A stretch of 64,000 bases of DNA from Octopus vulgaris (GCA_951406725.2 OX597820.1:93248001-93312000), one strand, 5' to 3'; shown: positions 7,977 to 58,972, counted from the first letter of the stretch. Notes: a model not told the origin generated them from the sequence alone. Numbers and translations: made by a program.

Positions 7977-8051
7977 ACATATTCCAAATGGTTAACTCGG
8001 CTTTTTAATTTCCTTATTTCAGATTGGACCAACAAATTTTCTGAAAGATCC
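7977..8051 (-). CDS. UXS1: Internal 75-nt exon, phase 2 to 2: DLSENLLVQSEIRKLKSRVNHLEY(V), luminal coiled-coil stem
   Basis: Acceptor ttctttctcttattaacag and donor GTAAGT. Open frame with a heptad pattern resembling the UXS1 stem (EPLREKIRDLEKS). Confidence 0.78.
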
Positions 8052-17338: not shown

Positions 17339-17375
17339 AAAGAATTGGAAGCTTTTGAGAGAGTTCCATAAGAAA
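17339..17375 (-). CDS. UXS1: Internal 37-nt exon, phase 1 to 2: (V)SYGTLSKASNS(L)
   Basis: Strong acceptor tttatgtttctttttaatattgcag and donor GTAAGT. Phases join both first exons to exon 8051-7977 without a stop. Confidence 0.75.
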
Positions 17376-34838: not shown

Positions 34839-34932
34839 CTAAACTCAGAGCTCCCAAAAATAATGAAGTACAAATTATTTGCATTAGTTTCTTACAGCGG
34901 AGGAAAAACAAGATATAGGCAAGCATGTTCAT
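34839..34932 (-). CDS. UXS1: Alternative first coding exon B (proximal) of the same gene: MNMLAYILFFLRCKKLMQIICTSLFLGALSL + phase 1
   Basis: ATG at 34932 (second ATG at 34926), 31 codons plus 1 nt, then a GTAAGA donor. Its last 20 residues align without gaps to exon A (8/20 identical, RCKKxMQ..T...L), with the same phase. Weak acceptor (tttgatgcag) ending at 34958. Confidence 0.65.
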
Positions 34933-34982
34933 AACGCTATGGTGTTTTTAAATGAACCTGCATCAAACTAGATATACGTGAG

Positions 34983-35019
<37 letters not shown>

Positions 35020-35380
35020 CAACACTATGTGAGTGTGTGAGTAATCGGAGGGGAATGAACGTATGGGCGTGTACTGTAGGGTGATTTCAAAATATGGAGG
35101 GAGGTAACTTCTACAAAAAAAATAGGTGTTCCGGCAAAGGCATTCGAGCTGCTAGAAATAGCAGCCAAATTACACTTACTTTCCTTTCATTTGATTTATT
35201 AACGCACTTAGGAAATTCCAATGTATACAAACAAAGCAGACGATTTACGACAAAGGCTAAAATCTCATTCTATCTTCAATTGTAGCCTGACACACAAAAC
35301 ACTTTATACATATATATTTATATGTATATATATATATATACATACATACAAATACATGTGTTTATATATATATATATATA

Positions 35381-35521
35381 TCATCATCATCGTTTAGCGT
35401 CCGTTTTCCATGCTAGCATGGGTTGGACGGTTCTACTGGGGTCTGTGAAGCCAGAAGGCTTCATCAGGCCCAGTCAAATCTGGCAGTGTTTCTACGGCTG
35501 GATGCCCTTCCTAACGCCAAC

Positions 35522-35556
<35 letters not shown>

Positions 35557-35568
35557 CAAATACATGTG

Positions 35569-35612
<44 letters not shown>

Positions 35613-35698
35613 TACAAATACATACATATATGTATACTTACATACAAATACATACATATATGTGTACTTACAGACAAATACATACATACAAATGCATT

Positions 35699-35739
<41 letters not shown>

Positions 35740-35858
35740 TGCTAGATCAGACTGGAGCCTGGTGCAGCCTACTGGCTTCCCAGACTCCGGTCGAACCATC
35801 TAACCCATGCTAGCATGGAAAACGGACGTTAAACGATGATGATGATATACATATATAC

Positions 35859-35898
<40 letters not shown>

Positions 35899-36349
35899 AT
35901 ACAAATATATATTTATATATACATATATATACATATATATATACCTACAAATATATATTTATATATATATACATATATATAAATATAGGAAGGGCATCCA
36001 GCCGTAGAAACACTGCCAGATTTGACTGGGCCTGATGAAGCCTTCTGGCTTCACAGACCCCAGTAGAACCGTCCAACCCATGCTAGCATGGAAAACGGAC
36101 GCTAAACGATGATGATGATGATGATATATATATACAAATATATATATTTCGTTTTGGGATTTGGTTTGCAAGGTTCTTTATGAGAGTTCGTATGTTGAAG
36201 CATATTCTGTTGTGTCTCAGGAGAGTCATTTTCCTTTTGTGCGTTATAATTTAACACACTGACCAGTAAAATTTCTACTTAATGAGTGTGTTAAAGTGTA
36301 AGGCACAAAAAGGAAATGACCCTCCCCAGACACAACAGTACATACATAA

Positions 36350-36396
<47 letters not shown>

Positions 36397-36411
36397 CATA
36401 CATATATATAA

Positions 36412-36442
<31 letters not shown>

Positions 36443-36640
36443 CATATATACGTGCAGGTGGCACGTAAAAAGCACCCACTACACTCACAGAGTGGTTGGC
36501 GTTAGGAAGGGCATCCAGCTGTAGAAACACTGCCAGATCAGACTGGAGCCTGGTGCAGCCTTCTGGCTTCCCAGATCCCCGGTCGAACCGTTTAACCCAT
36601 GCTAGCATGGAGAACGGATGTTAAACGATGATGATGATGA
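35381..36640. repeat. Cluster of four short RTE-3'-end copies (35381-35520 minus; ~35740-35845, 35988-36123 and 36453-36640 plus) embedded in (TA)n/(TACA)n
   Basis: catcatcgtttagcgtccgttttccatgctagcatgggttggacgg and its reverse complement repeated. Confidence 0.85.
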
Positions 36641-36652
36641 TATACATATATA

Positions 36653-36693
<41 letters not shown>

Positions 36694-36871
36694 ACATACA
36701 TATATATATACATATACATACATACATACATATATACATATACATACATATATACATATACATACATATACATATATACATACATATACATATATACATA
36801 CATATACATATATACATACATATATACATACATATACACATACATATATACATACATATATACATACATAT

Positions 36872-36916
<45 letters not shown>

Positions 36917-36961
36917 TACACATACAACACAGTTGCATGGAGAATTACAATTACAATGGAG

Positions 36962-37011
<50 letters not shown>

Positions 37012-37020
37012 TACACATAC
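36640..37020. repeat. Compound (TA)n/(TACA)n/(TACATA)n microsatellite
   Basis: Directly visible; source of the YI/IH low-complexity ORFs. Confidence 0.95.
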
Positions 37021-37967
37021 AACACAGTTGCATGGAGAATTACAATTAATGCATTTTATCAGAGAATACATTTTAAGCATAATTTTAGTGATAAATAACA
37101 ACATAGTGAAACAACTTGTACAGTCACTTTTGGTCTTTCGTCCCTTATTTGAATTTGGTCCGAATAACTTACAATATATAATTTTAACCATATATTACCT
37201 GTATGATTTAGTAAATATACAAATGATTTCCCTAATTAAACAGATACAAGTATTATTATATATTATTTTTTAACAAATTTGTAATTACTCATCTTTCATA
37301 TGCAGTATATTAAAACCTCCCCATAGTAATATCACTTTAACCTAAAATAATAAATATATATATACACACACACACATACACACATATATATATAAATTCA
37401 TTCACATTTTTCTTATATATTACATAATTTAACATACAATAGTCAAGTCCCTATATTAATTTCTGTATTGACTTTTACCATCCTACATACTAATAGTTAA
37501 TCTTGGATTATTTGTTTGATTTTTTTTTTTAGTTATATATATATTTTTTTATATATATATTTCTGCGTAATTTAATATTTATGTTTTCCGGTCATCCATT
37601 AACCAACAACCATAACAAAGTCACGGCCTTTCAAAACAACAGATGACCAATGAGGATACAGGACAGACCATAACCCTTGCCCCACTTCCCATAGGATTTC
37701 AACTACTCGATAAACAAAAAGTAATGGAAAATAATAAAGTAACTTGATTAATACCTGGAAATTTATAACTTTTAGTACTGACTAATATCACAGGTATTAA
37801 TATAAACTCTAACCCACTTATTGAGGACCTTGACCTCAAGCCCTCAATAGAAAACATACCGCATGTTTATATGTGTCTCCTTCTTCCCTTCTTTCCTGAG
37901 CGTCCAATAATACTTTATTTGTTCCACGTCCTTGCGTTGTTGTCATTTTGTTTTCTTGTTTGGATTA

Positions 37968-38015
<48 letters not shown>

Positions 38016-38170
38016 TGTGTATAGTTATAATAATTATATAAAAAGAGAAATACAAACTACTACAGTAATGCTCCCTTCTCAACACAGGAAATATGTATGT
38101 TCCTATGGGTATGTTTGTACATAAATATATATACATATGCATATATGTAAGTATAGATGTATATATATAT

Positions 38171-38568
38171 ACTCTTTTACTCTTTTACTTGTTTCAGTCA
38201 TTTGACTGCGGCCATGCTGGAGCACCGCCTTATAGTCAAGCAAATCAACCCCAGGACTTATTCTTTGTAAGCCCAGTACTTATTCTATCGGTCTCTTTTG
38301 CCGAACCGCTAAGTGACGGGGACGTAAACACACCAGCATCAGTTGTCAAGCAATGCTAGGGGGACAAACGCAGACACACAAATACACATATATATACATA
38401 TATACGACAGGCTTCTTTCAGTTTCCGTCTACCAAACCCACTCACAAGGCATTGGTCGGCCCGGAGCTATAGCAGAAGACACTTGCCCAAGGTGCTACGC
38501 AGTGGGACTGAACCCGGAACCATGTGGTTGGTTAGCAAGCTACTTACCACACAGCCACTCCTGTGCCT
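38171..38568 (-). mobile_element. SINE family A
   Basis: Full-length reverse copy. Confidence 0.9.
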
Positions 38569-38570
38569 AT

Positions 38571-38601
<31 letters not shown>

Positions 38602-41273
38602 GTATTCCACATTTAATACACCTTTTGATTCCTGCAATAATCTTAAGATATATTGATCATTTAAATTCCACTATTATTTCTCTTTTGATAATTTTTCTTT
38701 CCTATGTTTATACTTTATCTAATAAGAATAATATAATACACCTAATAATAATAATTGATTCCTTTGTATGCATATACATATACATGTAAATGTATAGATA
38801 TATATTTATGTAAATGTAAAAGTGTGTATATATGTATGTATTTATATTTATAACTTATCTTATGAACTTTCTAAACTCTCTGACAAAGCCCAGAGGCACA
38901 CCCAAGTACCTTAATCTTATCTACCAAATACTTCAGTTCACTGAAGAGATGGAAGTAATATGGGGTACTATAGCCTCCTGAATGAAACAGCTGTTAGATA
39001 CTACCCTACCTTGTATGCTCTACGTTATATATTTTAATAATCACTGGTATTTTTATATTTTATATATTATATATGGAAAGTATAATATGTTATACATGTA
39101 TGTATATTGCTATAATTGATTTTTTTAAAAATAGACATATAATGTCTAAAAGTTGATGAATACCATATCTTGATTCCCTCCATTTTCTTATTGCTGTGTA
39201 TATATATATATATATATACACATACATAAACATATATATATATGTGTGTGTGTCTGTATATGTATATATACATATATATGTATACATATGTGTGTCTATA
39301 TATGTATATATACATATATATGTATACATATGTGTGTCTATATATGTATATATACATATATATGTATGTATACATATATATATACATATATATATATACA
39401 TACATATAAATACATTCATACATATATATACATTCATGTATATATACATATATATATAAAGTCGATTTCAGATGTTAATCTCTAATTTCTTACCCCATCG
39501 GTTTTTACCTCGGTACTCTTTTTCTACTGAATGTTTTTGCATATAAGTAACATGGATAGATTCCTCTGGCCGAGATTCATCATATAAGCTAAAATAAAAT
39601 ACAGATTGCCTTTAAAAAAAATATATATTTGCACTCAAAGTCGATTTCAGGCATTATTCTCCTGTTTTTTGACTTCACATATTTTGCTGAAACACTTTTC
39701 TTAACTGAAACAATTCTCAAATTTTGTAGCTGAAAAGGTAATTTGGATGTGACCAATCTAAAAATGTAAACATCATTTAATTTGGTTAGTGACAAAGCCC
39801 TAAAAGTGGTCATCATAAGTGAGTAAATGTTGACCTCAAGAATATTACTCACACACTATTGTGTGAGAATGATTACTTCTTTTAAGAAAAAAATCTCTCA
39901 GCTACAAATGGTGACATTGTTGTCATTTCCTTCCCTACAGATTATCTACTGCTTGTGCTTTCAAAGTTATGTGGATAAGACATTCCTTACTTGGAAAACA
40001 GGTAACAGCCAGCAACTGGAAGGGTATCTAACTTTAAAACAATATCCCAATATATATCCATCTAACCCAAGCCAGCATGGAAAAAAATGGACATAAAGTG
40101 AATGATAGAAGCATAGAAGAAAAGTAATGGCAGAATTATTAATTGGAATGAAACCTCTACTGAAATCTAAAATTTTTACAATCCTTCCCTAAGTTTTTTT
40201 TTTTTATTCTTTGATTTTTTTTTTAATCAGTTTAAAATACAGACAGTTCGAATTCCTGACTTAAATCACAGTAATAGACCATTAACCATATTTATGGGGA
40301 GAAAAATATTTGAAAAATATCAATACATCAGACTGGCAAACAAACAAGGATGATATAAGGTGGTAGCGACATGTGCTAACAATAACAGCTATATAGCCCT
40401 TAAATCATGCAACAAAAGTTCGTTTTTTTTTGTTTTTGTTTTTGCATAGCTGTATCAATTCTTGTGTGTAAAACACAAATTCACAAAAGTTTTCTGGAAA
40501 TTCCCCCAAAAAAACGAAAAAGTTATGAGGGGTTATACAGCGCGCTTAAACAAAAATTCTGTCAGCACTTCTATATGCAAATGCATAAAATTACAAAGGT
40601 GCTTAATATGTTGCATAATGTGATTTTTGTCCCCAGGTAGCAACCATTATCTCCTATTTGCTTGTCCCAAGAAAGTATGAAAAATGGCTGATATTTCCTT
40701 CAAACTTGCTTTTATTACAAATATTTATTCAAATACCAAAGAATCCCACTCAACACATGGCTATGATGCTCCCCAACTAATTCTGCCCATGATCAGAGAT
40801 GCACATACTATCAGCCTCAAGTAGCTGAGGTCAAGCAACTGACAAGCAAATTTGTGGTATTGAGCAAAATATTTGCTATAACGATATTTGTGCTTCAGCA
40901 ACTCAGCACTGAATCTGTCTGAAATGTAATGGAAAATAGGTTAGTTTCAAAACATTGATGTCCTGTTCACAAAAACAAGTTTGAAAGAAATATTAGTCAT
41001 TTCCTTTGATACAAAAATTAAAAATAGGAAATAACACTTACTGACCAAAGACACCAAAAATTTTATTTTTATTTTGTTACATAGTGCTATTTGTTATTGA
41101 ACCATTTGATATGTACTAAACTGCTATTCTAAGATGCATGCTTCACACAATCTTGACAAACGTTGATTTCTCAGTTTGTAGGTTACAAATGAAGAGACTG
41201 CCACATCCTTTTGCTCCCAACTATAAATGTAACAAGTGGATAGTACTATGTAAAACTTGATATGCTTTATGCA

Positions 41274-41596
41274 TTCATCATCATCATCATCATCATCGTT
41301 TAATGTCCATTCTCCATGCTAGCATGGGTTGGACGGTTCGACCAGGGATCTGGGAAGCCAGAAGGCTGCACCAGGCTCCAGTATGATCTGGCAGTGTTTC
41401 TACAGCTGGATCCCCTTCCTAACGCCAACCACTCTGGGAGTGTAGTGGGTGCTTTTTATGTGCCACCGACACAGGTGCCAGGCGAGGCTGGCAACATCCA
41501 TGATCAGATTGGTGCTTATTACGTGCCACCAGCACGGAAGCCAGTCAAGGCGGCGCTGGCATCAGCCATGTTCAGATGGTGCTTTTTATGTGCCCT
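41274..41596 (-). mobile_element. RTE-3'-end repeat inserted into an older dispersed repeat
   Basis: The flanks (41165-41275 and 41596-41640) are contiguous in the uninterrupted copy at ~44570-44735. Confidence 0.75.
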
Positions 41597-41833
41597 TATG
41601 TAAATTGTAAGTGACACTGGTCAGAATTTCCAGCTGGACACCATACCAGTGTGTATATAGTATTAAGTATAATTATCACAATTTCTAGTTTTGTTATCAA
41701 AATGTAGGCTCTAAGCATCGATGATTTGCAAAACCTACGATAAAAATGAGAATATATAAATACCTGGGTGCGAACAGCCATGTTACATGGCAGTAAAACA
41801 GGCTGTGACTGTGACTATATATATATATATATG

Positions 41834-42140
41834 TGGAGGCAATGGCCCAGTGGTTAGGGGCAGCGGACTTGTGGTCGTAGGATCGTGGTTCCGATTCCCA
41901 GACCGGGAGTTGTGAGAGTTTATTGAGCGAAAACACCTAAAGCTCCACGAGGCTCCGGCAGGGGGTGGTGGTGATCCCTGCTGTACTCTTTCGCCACAAC
42001 TCTCTCTCACTCTTTCTTCTGTTGGCCTGCTCGCTTAGCCAGTGGGGTGGCATCATTTGAAGGCTAAAACAATGCGAAGCGCATTGTGACCAGCGATGTG
42101 TAGCAACATCTGATAGCCTGGTCGGTCACGGTGGCGGTGA
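41834..42140 (+). mobile_element. tRNA-derived SINE (third family)
   Basis: tggcccagtggttagg A box, ggttccgattcc B box and a GC-rich body, flanked by (TA)n. Confidence 0.75.
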
Positions 42141-43359
42141 TATATATACATGTGAAGGCTTGAAAGAAATGAAGCTAGTATGCTTTACTAGATGTACAAT
42201 GTCAGTGTGCACATACGACAGAGTGTAAGTGTCTTGAGAGAAAAATTGGGCATAAGAGGTGCAGATGTGGTGCACAAGAGACTGATAGGATAAGTACCAG
42301 GTTTTTAAAAAAAAGTACTAGGGCTGATTTATTCAACTAAGAATTCTTCATGCTGGTGTCCCAGGATGGCCACAGTCTAAAGACAAACAAGTAAAAGAGT
42401 ATAAAAGATAAAAAGATATATATTCTACATTAGAAATATATTGAATTAAGATAATGATATTAAACACATTTATCATTGTCGTGAAGACTAACTAATACAC
42501 ACCCACATCAATATTAATATCAATAAATCAAGGCCTCTTCAGAAATAATAAGCAACATCCTGTGGGTGGAAGAGGCAAAACTAGAGTGGCCGGTTCAACA
42601 CAACAAAAAATAAAGAAAAAAATAAGAAAATTTAACGTATTTCATAAGAATGAATGTGGTTTTTGTGATGTTATTTCTTTTATTTATTTTTCTTGTCGTT
42701 AGATATTTTGTGAACGGAAATATTTATTAAACCGCCCAGATTAATTTTCCATTTGAACTAGTTCTGACTGATTATGTTACTTGTTGTCACAGCAGATGGG
42801 CTATTTAGCGAAGAAGATAAAAAAATTTTCCATTCAAATCTTATCATTACCATCATTATTGTTACTATCGTGGACTTACATGCTGGCCTGTCATTCCCAT
42901 CATAATGTTGTTTGCAGCAGCTTTCACAAGTAGAAGGGTCTGAGCAGCAGCAGCAGCAATAACAACCACCACCACCACCACCACCACAACATGCATCAAC
43001 CATGCACCAGTGTCTTATGCCAACACTTTGTCAAAATATTTCATGATGTTTGCAACATGAGTATGTTTTTATAGAGCTTTACTTAAAATTGTTCCAGTTT
43101 AAAAACCGGACACCTTTTTTGTTGTAAGCTACCACAAAAGAACAGACTAGAAACGTTCAAAGTGGAACACCATTAGTATAAGATAAATTCTCTTTCTACT
43201 GCAAGAGTTTTCTCCACACTGATGATGCACTATGCTTAATCTTCAAGTCAGGAAGGTCTCTAGCTGAAATACTGTCAAAGATAATTCACCTCAAATACAC
43301 CCACAAATGTTAACACACGAGGCAATATTTAAAGACTCGTGCAACACAAATTGGCATAT

Positions 43360-43760
43360 AGGTGCAGGCATAACTGTGTGGTAAGAAGATTGCTTCCCAA
43401 TCACATGGTACCAGGTTCAGTCCCACAGTGTAGCACCTTGGGCAAATGTCTTCTACTATAGACTTTGGGCTGGCCAAAGCCTTGTGAATGGATTTGGTGA
43501 ACTGAAACTCAAAGAAGGCCATCGTGTGTATGTGTGTGTGTTGTCATGTCTGTGTTTGTCTTCCACCACCACTTGACAACCACTGCTGGTGTGTTGACAT
43601 TCCTGTAACTCAGCAGTTCGACAAAAAGAGGCCGATAGAATAAGTACCAGGCTTAACAAGGAAATAAGTACTGGAGTCAATTCATTTGACTAAAAATTCT
43701 TCAAGCTGGTGTCCCAGCATGGCCACAGTCTAATGACTGAGACAAGTAAAAGATAGAAGA
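43360..43760 (+). mobile_element. SINE family A, older subfamily
   Basis: ctgtgtggtaagaag..ggttcagtcccacag..ccttgggcaa..gactgagacaagtaaaaga. Confidence 0.8.
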
Positions 43761-46700
43761 TATGAAAAGGAAAGTTACAGAAACTACTGAATAGAAATTT
43801 AGAGAAAAATATATTTGAATAAATTTTATTTTCAACAAGGAAAATTCAATATGAGAAGCAAACTTGTTTACAATTTGCTTTTCATAACAAAGCAAAATCT
43901 GTTTGCCATTTGTCTAAACTGTGTAGTTACACATTGTAGCAAGGATATGTACAGGTTATGACAAGTGTCAAGATATATGATTATACAGAACAGCAAGAAT
44001 GTAAGTAGTGATATAAGTAAAGATAAACTGTAACACAGTACAAGAAGGATGCGTGTGTGTGGGATCAGTGATATTTTAACTATACTATTGACAATTTATT
44101 AGAGATAATGTTGGTTAGTAACCCTTTTGTTACTGTATTTATTTTGAAATGCTCTGTATTTCTTTCAACTACTTTAAATATAACAAAGAATTTAGTAAAA
44201 TAATTTAGTTATCATTAAGCTGGTGTTAGGAACATAAATTGTGACTAAGGTTTGGTGGGAGATTTTAATTCAAAACAAGAGCCAGAGCCGGTTTCAGCTG
44301 GGTTGGTAACAGAAGGGCTGTGTTAATCAGTGATTGCAGCTGCCTAACTAAAACTGATGTCTAACACAGACAGACAGAAAGGATGCATATTTTGGGGGAA
44401 GGGTATAGTTGATTAAATTGCTTTCTATGCTTGACAGGTACTTATTTCACCAAAACCCTAAAAAGTTAAAAGGTAACACGGACCTTGTGAGGGTTTGAAC
44501 TCAGAACGTAAAGGACCACAACTAAATACCATAAAGCATTTTATTGCCTAAAAGATAGACAGATTAATTCCTCAGGTTGTAAATTACAGATGAGGAAACT
44601 GCAACATTCTTTAACTCTCAACTATAAACATAAGTGGATGATTACTGCCTACGTAAAACTTGATATGCTTTGCACATTCATAGAGAATATTATGTAAGCT
44701 GTATGTAGCATTTGTCAGAATTTCTAGGTGGATAGCTTACACAAGTTTTGGAAAGTAGGTTTTTAGAAAACAAGGGCAATGCATGAAAAGAGACACAGAG
44801 ATCTGCTCAATTAAGGTTAACTTGGTGGTGAGCAAAGTGTAGAAGTACCATATATTGAATACTTAGCATGCCTGCATGTTCGTATATTAGAGTAACTCTA
44901 AGCTAGTGTACACCAAAAATCCTGCCATCTGTTTTTAAATATGCACATTTCAAAACAAAAACAGATCTTGCTGAGCCCACATAGTCACTCAAATTCCTAG
45001 AAACAGCAGCCAAATCTTCATAACAGTATATCCTAGTATCTAAGAAGAAAGGATACTCTGATTAACGGAGTTACAGTGAAGGGTGGTACTCTGTTCACAA
45101 AATGAATTGAAGAGAAAAAGCAACCATGATGCAGGAAGAAAGACAATCAGTGCTACTATATAGCAAGCAGTCTATGGCAGTATCTATAATCTACATACTG
45201 TAATGTGTAGTTTACCAAGACCTCCACCAAACACAGTTACTAAGGCCAATCAACAAATTCTCTCATATCCTTCATACATTTTACCCTTTATAAATCCTCT
45301 GAAAGACATCCACATGAAAGTCATCTCAAAAAAAAAAGGGAGTGCCTGTTATTACTATTAATCCATGAAGTAAAATTTTGCTTTTATTCTTATTAAGGGC
45401 TACGATCGATCGCTAATACATTCTATAATAAATGCTTCTTTTTATCTTGTAATGTAAACACTCAGGGTAGACAGCATGTTATAATAAAAGTGTCTGTAGT
45501 CATACATCATCATTATTGAGAGGTAATATTAATCCCCACTTAAACATACTCTATTGGATCAAACTTTACTGCAGTAGATACCATGAGAGAAACTTCCATA
45601 TTGTCTTTTGGTGCAAAATGCCCTCTTGTTTAAATCACTAGCAGGGAGCTAAATCCCTGCCATCTCCAGCACTGAGACCATCAGATAATGTAATTTCAAC
45701 TTTCCTTGGTCTTATTAATGATGAACACTTTAATAAGTTCAGGCATGTAAAGAGAAAGTGTCAAGACTAAATGTATTAGGATTACTCTTAGTAATATCGG
45801 GATTCAGTTCAATACATTAGTAGTCCATTTAGTAAAACACAACTATGTGGATGCCCAATCAGATGTTGAACATTTCAGTATGTATTCCATCTTGGTATGG
45901 AAACCAATGTCCCCACTGGTATCTTCATTCTCTGAAAAGGTCCCCATCATACTCGATGGTATGATTTTTGAAGATGTTGATCAATTTTAAGCATCTTTAT
46001 GCATCTTTCACATTGACCATACATGTGGTACATTCTGTCATTTTCAACCTCAGCTTTGATCTAGATCTAAGATCCATATAGCCACAAAAGTTTACATGTG
46101 AAGAGTATATGTTTACACTAGTCAGTTATATACAGCTGCAAAACATATCCAGGCTGGAAGTATTTGAGCTACTTTCACTTTTAGCAAGATTTTTTTATGC
46201 TTACACTTAGGATTTTGTATCAACCACTGAAGTCTGTAATCTTTGATTTGCTTCAAAGACTTAAGGTACTCTTTGTTGGTTTGGGCATGCACTCCTTTGT
46301 CTATGGAACAAACTCATCTGTGATGCAATCATGTCCGAACTGCACTTAGGATGATGTAGAAAGCAATTGAAAAGGTGAATGAAAATAAGTCAGATCTTGA
46401 ATCAACATCTGCAAATATGATAACAGCTGTTCAAATCAAGACTGGCTGATGTGTTCTCCATCAGACATTTATGACCAGGTTCATGCAACTGTAGGCTCAC
46501 TGGCTGGAGGTGGCTCAACCTATGCCAGGTGAACACTAACACAAGTACAAGTGTTTGATCATAAGAAAAAAAAATATTGCTTGCTGTTATTTAGTTCCAG
46601 GCTAATCCTGTGCAAACTGAGTTATAATCAAAGGCATTCTTTACCAGTACAATCCCACCTATCTTAAAATTTTATTTGTAGAGTACAGTTTGAAGGAGAT

Positions 46701-48903
46701 TTGACTGTTATTTCTGAAAGGTTGAGGAACCATGTAGAGGTTGCCTTGACTGTTTCTTTGTAAACGTAACCAAGTAACAGAGAGTGCTGCTACTTCGCTT
46801 CAATGCTAATATGAATTAAACCAGAAATCAATAACTATTGCATATGCTCGCTCGTCAATACATATTATTATATACATACACATAGTAACTGAACACATGT
46901 GATAAGAACAGATCAATGAGTCATCAATATAACGACTTTTCTATCATTCGATCAGCTTTCCAACCACAACCGTGCGTCATCTATTGCAATATAATGTCTC
47001 CTTTCTAAATAAAGTTAGGGGTGATTGGAGGGAGATTTAGTTGAACAGATCGAGTAATTGAAATTGCAGATGTTGGAATAGAATATACCCAATATGCTGA
47101 TTCTGTGGATTGCAGCACGACCTCTGACCTGCTTTCAACGGGTCATAGGGCATCTTGAATAGGACAGACCGAGATTACAGATTAACAATAATAAGCTTTT
47201 CTACATAACGCGACAAGGTAGAATCCAAATCTCCCTGCAACTGCAGCTAACAAGCTTAAAAAGGGAATAACACATTATATATAACACTAAAAAAAATACG
47301 TTTTGCTCAAGAATGATGAGCGAGAATGCTGGTCAAGACTAACCAGAAACTAAATGATGGTAATAAAAAGAGGGGCAACATGAAGAAGTATAGACTAAAT
47401 ATCCAAAATTAGGAGGGAGGAGAAACCTTCTCAATGTGACTTCTTTTTAAATTTTTGTCAGAGAGAGAAGGATAACGCCAGTGACCGTTTATTTTTCTGT
47501 CCAGGGCTACCGGCACTCGCAAGCCCGAATGCTTACAACAGAAGTGATCCCCACAGAAGTCACCCAAAAAAAAAGGACCAGATGGATAGTGATGTTAAGT
47601 CTACCTCCCCAAAAGTTTTAATTTAAACGCTCGTTAATAATTTATACTAGAGGCGGCGATCTTTCGTCTGAATGATTGCCCTAGAGGCATTTTGTATGCC
47701 TTCATATGCAATACCAATCTGATTAAGACAGATAAACATTAATATCGCTCCAACACTGATTTTAAAATGTTTTTTTTTTTTTTTTTTTTTTTCTCGCTCT
47801 AACTTTTGTAAAATATGCTTTTTTTCACAGAATATTTTAATTAAAATGTATTTTGCACTTCATCATATAATATATTGGGACAATTCAATAAACTCTACCC
47901 TTTCACTACATGCAGATTTCTATGCGGGTTTTCAAGTGGATGATAGCACAAAATATAAATCAATATTTGAAATTTAGACTTCCAATCAATAGTTTTTGTA
48001 AATAACCTTAAAAGAAACAGTTCAATGGTGTTCGTACAAAAATCTTTGTATAAGCTGTATGTATATGAATGAAAGAGGTAACAGAAGTGGGATGCATCTG
48101 TGAATGTTATCGACTGAGCAACAGTTGCAGTTAAAAAAGATATTTTGACAATGACAAGGTCGTTGCTACTATCAACTATCTTTTTCGACTAACACACACC
48201 TGTGTCTATATCCAGTTTAGAAATAGCAGCCAAATCTCTCTCAGATCATATCGTTCCATCTTTAAAAAAAAAAAGATAGAACGGATGAAAGATTAATTAA
48301 TCTGGTCCTTGGTACACAACGGTCTGGCATTATTAAAATATATAAAACGATAAGGTTGTAGTTGGAATATCTTTGAATATAGGATTGCTAGATCACAGTA
48401 AACTACGGGTAAACAATAACTGAGAAACTTTCAGGGCACTAGTTGATATCAGATGAAAATAAAAGTTAGGGAAACTTTGATGAGAAAAGCAATCTCGTAG
48501 ATACTTAGAGATTATCAATATAAGTGTCTGTGTGTCTGTTTGTTTATCGTCATGTGATATTGCTGTTATAATTAGCTTGAGTTCGCAGACTCTTTTATAT
48601 ATATATATATATATACCTATATATATTATATATTTGGTCCGAATTTTTAATTAACTGACACGATAAAACAAATACCCATACCTATATATTTCCGTAAAAT
48701 ACCTTTGTATTAAAAATAAAATAAAATAAATCTAACAATCAGGCATTTAAAATCTATTACTACTAAGATATAAAAAAAAAAGTTCAGTAGTAAATAGAAA
48801 GCAAGTAACTGAATTCCGGATTTATGATTTGATGCAAGCAGGGCAGAGAGATTTCTTAGTGAGGACAATATAAAAATAAAGTATGCGATCCAAAAGAACT
48901 TAC

Positions 48904-48985
48904 CATAAGCTATGATAGAAAGCAATCCTAAAGTGATGAAAACCTGCATTTTTTTCTTACAACGAGGAAGAGGAAAAATCGTCAT
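48904..48985 (-). CDS. UXS1: First coding exon A (distal) of a type II membrane protein, probably UDP-glucuronic acid decarboxylase 1 (UDP-xylose synthase): MTIFPLPRCKKKMQVFITLGLLSIIAY + phase 1
   Basis: ATG at 48985, 27 codons plus 1 nt, then a perfect GTAAGT donor (48903-48898). Basic cluster followed by a hydrophobic TM segment, recalling vertebrate UXS1 RRRMKLLLGIALLAYVASVWG (from memory, not a database search). Splices in frame to 17375-17339. Confidence 0.75.
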
Positions 48986-49009
48986 TTGCTTTGCCTCGGG
49001 AACATGCCT

Positions 49010-49100
49010 TCTACAGAACCTATCAACATCCGGTGTCTATATTAATAATGGCACCAAGGGAAGTAACTCGGTCGTTTTATTTCAATTGGCTGTTTCGCTG
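49010..49100 (-). promoter_or_regulatory. Putative core promoter of first exon A
   Basis: Just upstream of the ATG: ETS-like CCGGATG (49033-49027), GGAAGT (49059-49064), YY1-like ATGGC/GCCAT (~49048-49052) and CCAAT on the minus strand (49089-49085), in CpG-retaining DNA. Confidence 0.4.
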
Positions 49101-58557: not shown

Positions 58558-58972
58558 TTATTTCTTCATTGCCCACAAGGGGCTAAACATAGAGAGGACA
58601 AACACGGACAGACAAAGGGATTAAGTCGATTACGTTGACCCCAGTGCGTAACTGGTACTTAATTTATCGACTCCGAAAGGATGAAAGGCAAAGTCGACCT
58701 CGGCGGAATTTGAACTCAGAACGTAACGGCAGCCGAAATACCTATTTCTTTACTACCCACAAGGGGCTAAACACAGAGAGGACAAACAAGGACAGACAAA
58801 CGAATTAAGTCGATTGTATCGACTCCGGTGCGTAACTGGTACTTAATTTATCGACCCCGAAAGGATGAAAGGCAAAGTCGACCTCGGCGGAATTTGAACT
58901 CAGAACGTAACGACAGCCGAAATACCGCTAAGCATTTCACCCGGCGTGCTAACGTTTCTGCCAGCTCGTTAC
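58558..58972 (-). mobile_element. SINE family B tandem dimer
   Basis: Two consecutive reverse copies, the second complete to the tRNA-like head. Confidence 0.88.

Follow-up and report, generated by a model that had tools for sequence, protein, structure and literature searches.

Variable first exons of the GCNT2/UGT1A type encode part of the catalytic or substrate-binding domain, and in GCNT2, a type II enzyme of the glycan pathway, a large portion of the catalytic domain is encoded by each first exon as well. Here we analyse a pair of first coding exons, A and B, in the UXS1 gene (UDP-glucuronate decarboxylase, which makes UDP-xylose) of Octopus vulgaris, both located in a stretch of 64,000 nucleotides (nt) (G000:C7:93248001-93312000; hereafter the window, within which the positions of A and B are counted). 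A human catalogue describes 39 N-terminal substitution events that arose from tandem exon duplication, including GCNT2 (Martinez Gomez et al. 2021, PMC8373072). Alternative first exons also alter the cytoplasmic tail of B4GALNT2 (PMC9959560), and plant UXS families supply the activity with different N-termini. Human UXS1 is found in the endoplasmic reticulum (ER) and Golgi alike, and scarce NAD+ in the ER limits its reactivation (PMC12488480).

Two first coding exons in octopus UXS1

An original prediction, made from the sequence of the window, held that two minus-strand exons give one glycan-pathway enzyme, UXS1, two different membrane anchors. Its two-exon layout was accurate in coordinates, peptides, ATGs, phase-1 GTAAG donors and in-frame joins to exon 17375-17339, and the identity of the gene was correct. 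The catalytic exons fall outside the window, from G000:C7:93234614 down to 93223458 on the same strand, and match protein record P0002. Judged by these exon matches, by named records and by the tree, the catalytic NAD-dependent domain is orthologous to animal UXS1, and on this basis the gene is UXS1. Genome searches returned one UXS1 locus (10 matches, all on one stretch) and one copy of exon B. The features of the pair are as follows.

48904..48985, minus strand: coding part of exon A, MTIFPLPRCKKKMQVFITLGLLSIIAY, with a phase-1 donor GTAAGT; ancestral-type first coding exon, N-terminus of P0002, P0004 and P0005
48986..49027, minus strand: 5' untranslated stretch of exon A; one cDNA begins at 49014, where a template-switch primer is attached, and a second contig extends to 49027
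48982..49005, minus strand: putative out-of-frame upstream open reading frame of 7 codons, read from the sequence, its stop codon overlapping the main start codon of exon A as ATGA
34839..34932, minus strand: coding part of exon B, MNMLAYILFFLRCKKLMQIICTSLFLGALSL, with a phase-1 donor GTAAGA; likely derived duplicate, N-terminus of P0001 and P0007 and, with 5 changes, of P0006 and P0008
34983..35018, no strand assigned: (TA)18 tract, 35-70 nt upstream of the 5' end of the B contig, masking the true start of B in contigs
17339..17375, minus strand: shared exon 2, 37 nt, whose first 30 nt form the loose end of A and B contigs alike
7977..8051, minus strand: shared exon 3, 75 nt, encoding the stem; exons 2 and 3 sum to 112 nt, equal in length to the loose part of the contig from run X15

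Exons A and B are separated by 14,065 nt on the minus strand, and each joins exon 17375-17339 in frame and free of stops. Both end before the stem, with all downstream sequence common to the two forms, and neither encodes a catalytic or substrate-binding part as first exons of the GCNT2/UGT1A type do. In the RefSeq models, tail and anchor are all that distinguishes the isoforms in this part of the gene, as had been proposed. Exon B has two in-frame ATGs close together, at 34932 and 34926 (minus), the second of which is used by the O. bimaculoides model. Exon A has a further out-of-frame upstream ATG at 49029 (minus); its main ATG has C at -3 and Met13 has A at -3, and leaky scanning could yield a tail-less form.

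Splicing and transcript ends

The two junctions to be sought, 48904>17375 and 34839>17375, are both present in public contigs. Six of the 24 listed runs were examined, all found by small word shares and only guessed to be RNA: exon A in X2, X3, X4 and X15 and exon B in X2, X4, X9 and X12, where runs lacking contig cover (X2 and X4 on A; X2, X9 and X12 on B) prove nothing. The junction from A to exon 2 occurs in two of the four runs (X3 and X15), the contig match ending at 48904 and continuing with the first 30 nt of exon 2. The junction from B occurs in one of four (X4), in a contig that matches 34948-34839 with zero differences and continues with the same 30 nt. Because these junctions remove 31.5 kilobases (kb) for A and 17.5 kb for B in a single-copy gene, the contigs are read as spliced RNA, and splicing of both exons onto the common exon 2 is supported. 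The A contigs pass straight from A to exon 2 and leave B out. Joining A to B through any of the five AG acceptors tested upstream of B (5/5) gives a premature stop; as to a productive mRNA containing both, the A contigs omit B, and the B contig does not extend far enough on its 5' side to rule out another exon ahead of it.

At 49014 the X15 contig continues into 23 additional letters, which match nothing in the surrounding 214 kb (5 mismatches) or in the genome (1 mismatch), and which match the NEB 5' template-switch primer quoted in bioRxiv 10.1101/2021.03.29.437610 and 10.1101/2023.02.05.527185. An exon upstream of A, for which these letters were the candidate, was ruled out, the letters being library primer. 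Since the primer marks a cDNA 5' end inside A (one run, X15), the position of exon A as the 5'-terminal exon is supported. A 191-nt X2 contig at 35038-35228 may be untranslated B sequence or intron RNA, either being possible. In addition, a 1561-nt X3 contig runs unbranched through exon 2, and X4 has B without cover of A, a hint of sample-specific use and not evidence of it.

Homology of the exons and properties of the anchors

The prediction had aligned A and B without gaps over their last 20 codons, around a shared DNA core. The last 61 nt are identical at 32 positions and the last 20 codons at 8 residues, but only the first 7 codons of this alignment hold up: the similarity lies wholly within RCKKxMQ (17/20 nt), and the 13 anchor codons match at 14/39 nt, a level reached by 47% of shuffles for DNA and 18% for protein. 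A gapped register of the anchor brings no improvement (21% of shuffles reach it). The core itself is present at 17/20 nt, a figure to be read against one unrelated site in the window that reaches 16/20 by chance. Nor is the overall DNA identity unique: two further GT sites agree with A at 32-33/61 nt, each of them bringing in stops. When B is aligned to A from the donor, its BLOSUM62 score is 38, the next best among 24,793 GT sites on both strands of the 214-kb region being 17, and a score of at least 38 is reached by 2 of 100,000 codon shuffles. Homology of A and B is thereby well supported at the sequence level, the signal coming from a short motif whose spacing to the donor is fixed. The pair displays the homology expected of duplicated 5' coding exons, with a signal limited to 7 codons, and mutual substitution, both exons joining the same downstream exon in frame. 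No third copy was found, in that no other donor among the 24,793 GT sites of the 214 kb scores near B. A similar RCKKK stretch (L021), some 35 kb upstream of A, was rejected as a third copy, being a poly-A run without a matching donor.

After the basic motif, the uncharged run spans 22 residues in A and 23 in B, and the best 15-residue Kyte-Doolittle mean is 2.26 and 2.13, respectively, both lower than in the other animals measured (2.6-3.7). Both products are predicted to be type II membrane enzymes of the ER/Golgi lumen. The idea of two different membrane anchors agrees with their unlike sequences and is weakened by their nearly equal length and hydrophobicity.

Relatives, divergence and dating

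A cluster at 90% identity has eight members, of which P0001 and P0007 (O. sinensis isoforms X2 and X1) and P0006 and P0008 (O. bimaculoides) are B-type, and P0002 and P0004 (O. sinensis, O. vulgaris), P0005 (O. bimaculoides) and P0003 (Argonauta hians) are A-type. Among the RefSeq models, O. sinensis isoforms X1/X2 are B-type and X3/X4 A-type, and O. bimaculoides isoform X1 is B-type and X2 A-type; the A and B peptides of the window are identical to the O. sinensis/O. vulgaris records. Both forms are already in the automated annotation, and the B-type model of O. bimaculoides provides the conservation of exon B in a related cephalopod that had been called for.

O. bimaculoides split off approximately 34 million years ago (bioRxiv 10.1101/2023.05.16.540928). 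In comparison with this species, 0/27 residues differ in A, 5/29 in B and 5/376 in the shared part. All five B changes exchange one hydrophobic residue for another (p 0.004-0.007 under random non-synonymous point change, in a post hoc test), and none lies in the motif, a sparing that alone is not significant (p 0.23). This pattern suggests selection on hydrophobicity.

In a tree that left out the first exon and contained 25 rows hand-chosen from the matches, P0009 and P0010, probably from squids or cuttlefish, are sister to the octopod sequences with 100/99 support. P0009, P0010 and P0128 have an A-like start with Arg at the octopod Cys position. Because A and B share the Cys that is absent in the sister-clade proteins, the duplication most simply postdates the Arg/Cys change, suggesting that it occurred in the octopod lineage before the O. 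bimaculoides split. Within the sampled proteins it appears confined to octopods. A second homologous anchor exon was not seen in 20 further clusters, a thin sampling that does not show absence. Searches for B-type N-termini elsewhere returned only the O. sinensis cluster (1/1 candidates; the sole one among 13) and one unrelated repeat protein; with 30 residues such searches are weak, and absence from squids, cuttlefish and Argonauta is not established by them. The prediction of an old duplication retained under selection is to be divided: the hydrophobic-only B changes suggest selection, whereas the event appears young and lineage-restricted.

Alternative N-termini of other kinds occur in UXS1 models. 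Those of Crassostrea gigas X4/X5 and Liolophura X2 are unrelated, and P0172, P0174 and P0182 (Crassostrea cluster), P0111 (Liolophura X2), P0186 and P0194 have unrelated or anchor-less N-termini; such animal models possibly represent soluble forms. In the land snails Bradybaena and Candidula, UXS1 is present as two genes that lie on separate contigs and differ in their anchors (P0013, P0015, P0018, P0131, P0132), a whole-gene duplication arriving at a similar end.

Possible explanations for exon B

The reading favoured here, which we hold to be somewhat probable, starts from a single UXS1 gene that splices A or B onto the common downstream exons. B likely arose when exon A plus upstream DNA was duplicated in the octopod lineage, and it likely persisted because it provides a second transcription start; both forms are predicted to be working type II enzymes. 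Since a first coding exon carries start codon, tail and anchor, a duplicated promoter would have to keep a usable start codon, basic tail and signal-anchor. Selection would hold RCKKxMQ, the distance from motif to donor and hydrophobicity, while the letters of the anchor drift. Both forms would make UDP-xylose in the ER/Golgi lumen, with separate expression control as the main gain and anchor differences as a secondary one. A second promoter is favoured as the main gain because anchors equal in length and hydrophobicity but scrambled in sequence are the expected result of selection for anchor function.

Several observations weigh against this reading. The anchor codons are without detectable homology, and 14-kb blocks around each exon show no flank homology beyond interspersed repeats, none of it collinear with the donors. 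B changes faster than A (5/29 versus 0/27, Fisher p 0.052), which fits relaxed constraint, and the hydrophobicity test was chosen after the changes had been seen. B has a hydrophobic tail (LAYILFFL) and a second Cys in its anchor, both kept in O. bimaculoides, and the two forms may not be equivalent. In addition, the 5' end of the B contig sits 9 nt inside a possible acceptor at 34957, near the TA repeat, and the evidence for exon B comes from a single run (X4) plus automated gene models.

A possible but less probable account, the mechanism of the prediction, accepts the same gene structure and attributes the retention of B to distinct behaviour of its anchor, in which the hydrophobic tail and the additional Cys would shift ER/Golgi distribution, retention, acylation or cleavage. 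It is consistent with anchors that are as unlike as shuffles yet kept at the same length, with the conservation of the hydrophobic tail and second Cys of B in O. bimaculoides, and with B4GALNT2, whose localisation is altered by alternative first exons through the cytoplasmic tail (PMC9959560); location could also matter for UXS1, since the human enzyme is in ER and Golgi and ER NAD+ is scarce (PMC12488480). However, anchor length and hydrophobicity are nearly equal, the membrane-adjacent basic motif is common to A and B, and the Cys, in the prediction a candidate palmitoylation site, is absent from the sister-clade proteins P0009, P0010 and P0128, so that it is not conserved outside octopods in the proteins seen. 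More tentative still is the proposal that octopods duplicated only the targeting module of UXS1 and that promoter choice might switch the enzyme between its two anchors, moving UDP-xylose synthesis within the secretory pathway (or alter acylation or release), tuning proteoglycan priming per tissue with an identical catalytic domain.

It is unlikely that B instead provides the start codon but follows a hidden non-coding exon to which it is spliced, its use being partly set by splicing. A candidate acceptor at 34958/34957, 25 nt upstream of the B ATG, and an X4 contig that stops short of it would agree with this arrangement, but the pyrimidine tract of the acceptor is poor. Moreover, with A at the 5' terminus in X15 and premature stops in the A+B joins, this arrangement would require yet another exon upstream, driven by a promoter of its own. 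That B is a non-duplicate or non-functional exon, either exonised intron with a convergent likeness to A or a degenerating copy whose splicing is mere noise, is very improbable. In favour of this view, its homology to A comes down to about 20 nt (17/20, against 16/20 at the chance site in the window), flank homology is absent and B changes faster than A. Against it, the motif is equally far from a donor of the same phase in both exons, no other GT site comes close to its score, and two lineages separated by about 34 million years have both preserved the frame, the ATG, the motif and the hydrophobicity.

If the anchors are equivalent, B would be an ordinary second promoter, already modelled by automated annotation. 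More generally, the locus would illustrate how far the decay of a duplicated first exon can go, leaving a 7-residue motif and its conserved spacing. It also offers a natural experiment, in which one catalytic domain is joined to two anchors of equal length and unrelated sequence in two Octopus lineages about 34 million years apart. Comparing the forms would test which features of tail and anchor determine the ER/Golgi position of UXS1, which is relevant as lumenal NAD+ limits the human enzyme (PMC12488480).

Other features of the locus

Outside the window, exons 3 and 4 are separated by a 12-nt microexon on the minus strand (L009:4918-4929; G000:C7:93242918-93242929), which extends the end of the stem by TCLR; it is present in 3/8 cluster members and occurs together with A as well as with B. 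At the same position, inserts of 4-9 residues are seen in isoforms of Haliotis, Mytilus and Crassostrea, suggesting a mollusc-wide alternatively spliced site. Within the window, an 18-nt motif from a short interspersed repeat has six same-strand copies (18408, 28024, 33854, 35153, 44998 and 48218), and the repeat copy at 35141-35178 attracts many contigs from other loci. A 184-nt unit at 58559-58926 stands in two tandem copies (91% matched) and is probably derived from a repeat element.

Comparison with known systems

The prediction that no such arrangement had been described for UXS1 agrees in part with the literature: a search returned no paper on alternative UXS1 first exons among the sources it reached. 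Both forms are nevertheless in RefSeq models, duplicated 5' coding exons are a catalogued class, and a long-read octopus annotation (PMC9699675) may already contain both isoforms and the 5' end of B. Collectively, the apparently lineage-restricted pair of interchangeable start exons is real, is in gene models and is apparently undescribed, while the class itself is known. Octopus UXS1 resembles the catalogued cases in that duplicated 5' coding exons give homologous, interchangeable N-termini, through alternative promoters in the catalogue and probably so in the octopus; those cases are human, and UXS1 has 0 occurrences in the available text and supplement of the catalogue (PMC8373072). By comparison with them, the octopus event appears young and lineage-restricted, with homology decayed to a 7-residue motif. 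Going by gene names, the 39 rows include no glycosyltransferase other than GCNT2, which likewise places duplicated first coding exons (three interchangeable 5' exons; table rows 86-87, PMC8373072) onto common exons, whereas octopus UXS1 swaps only about 30 residues of tail and anchor and leaves the catalytic domain identical. The long and short forms of B4GALNT2 also show alternative first exons changing the cytoplasmic tail and localisation of a Golgi enzyme, but they share one transmembrane domain (PMC9959560), while octopus UXS1 swaps the anchor itself between homologous exons. Finally, plant UXS families include membrane-bound and cytosolic members with different N-termini; there, anchored and soluble enzymes come from separate paralogous genes, whereas in the octopus one gene gives two anchored forms.

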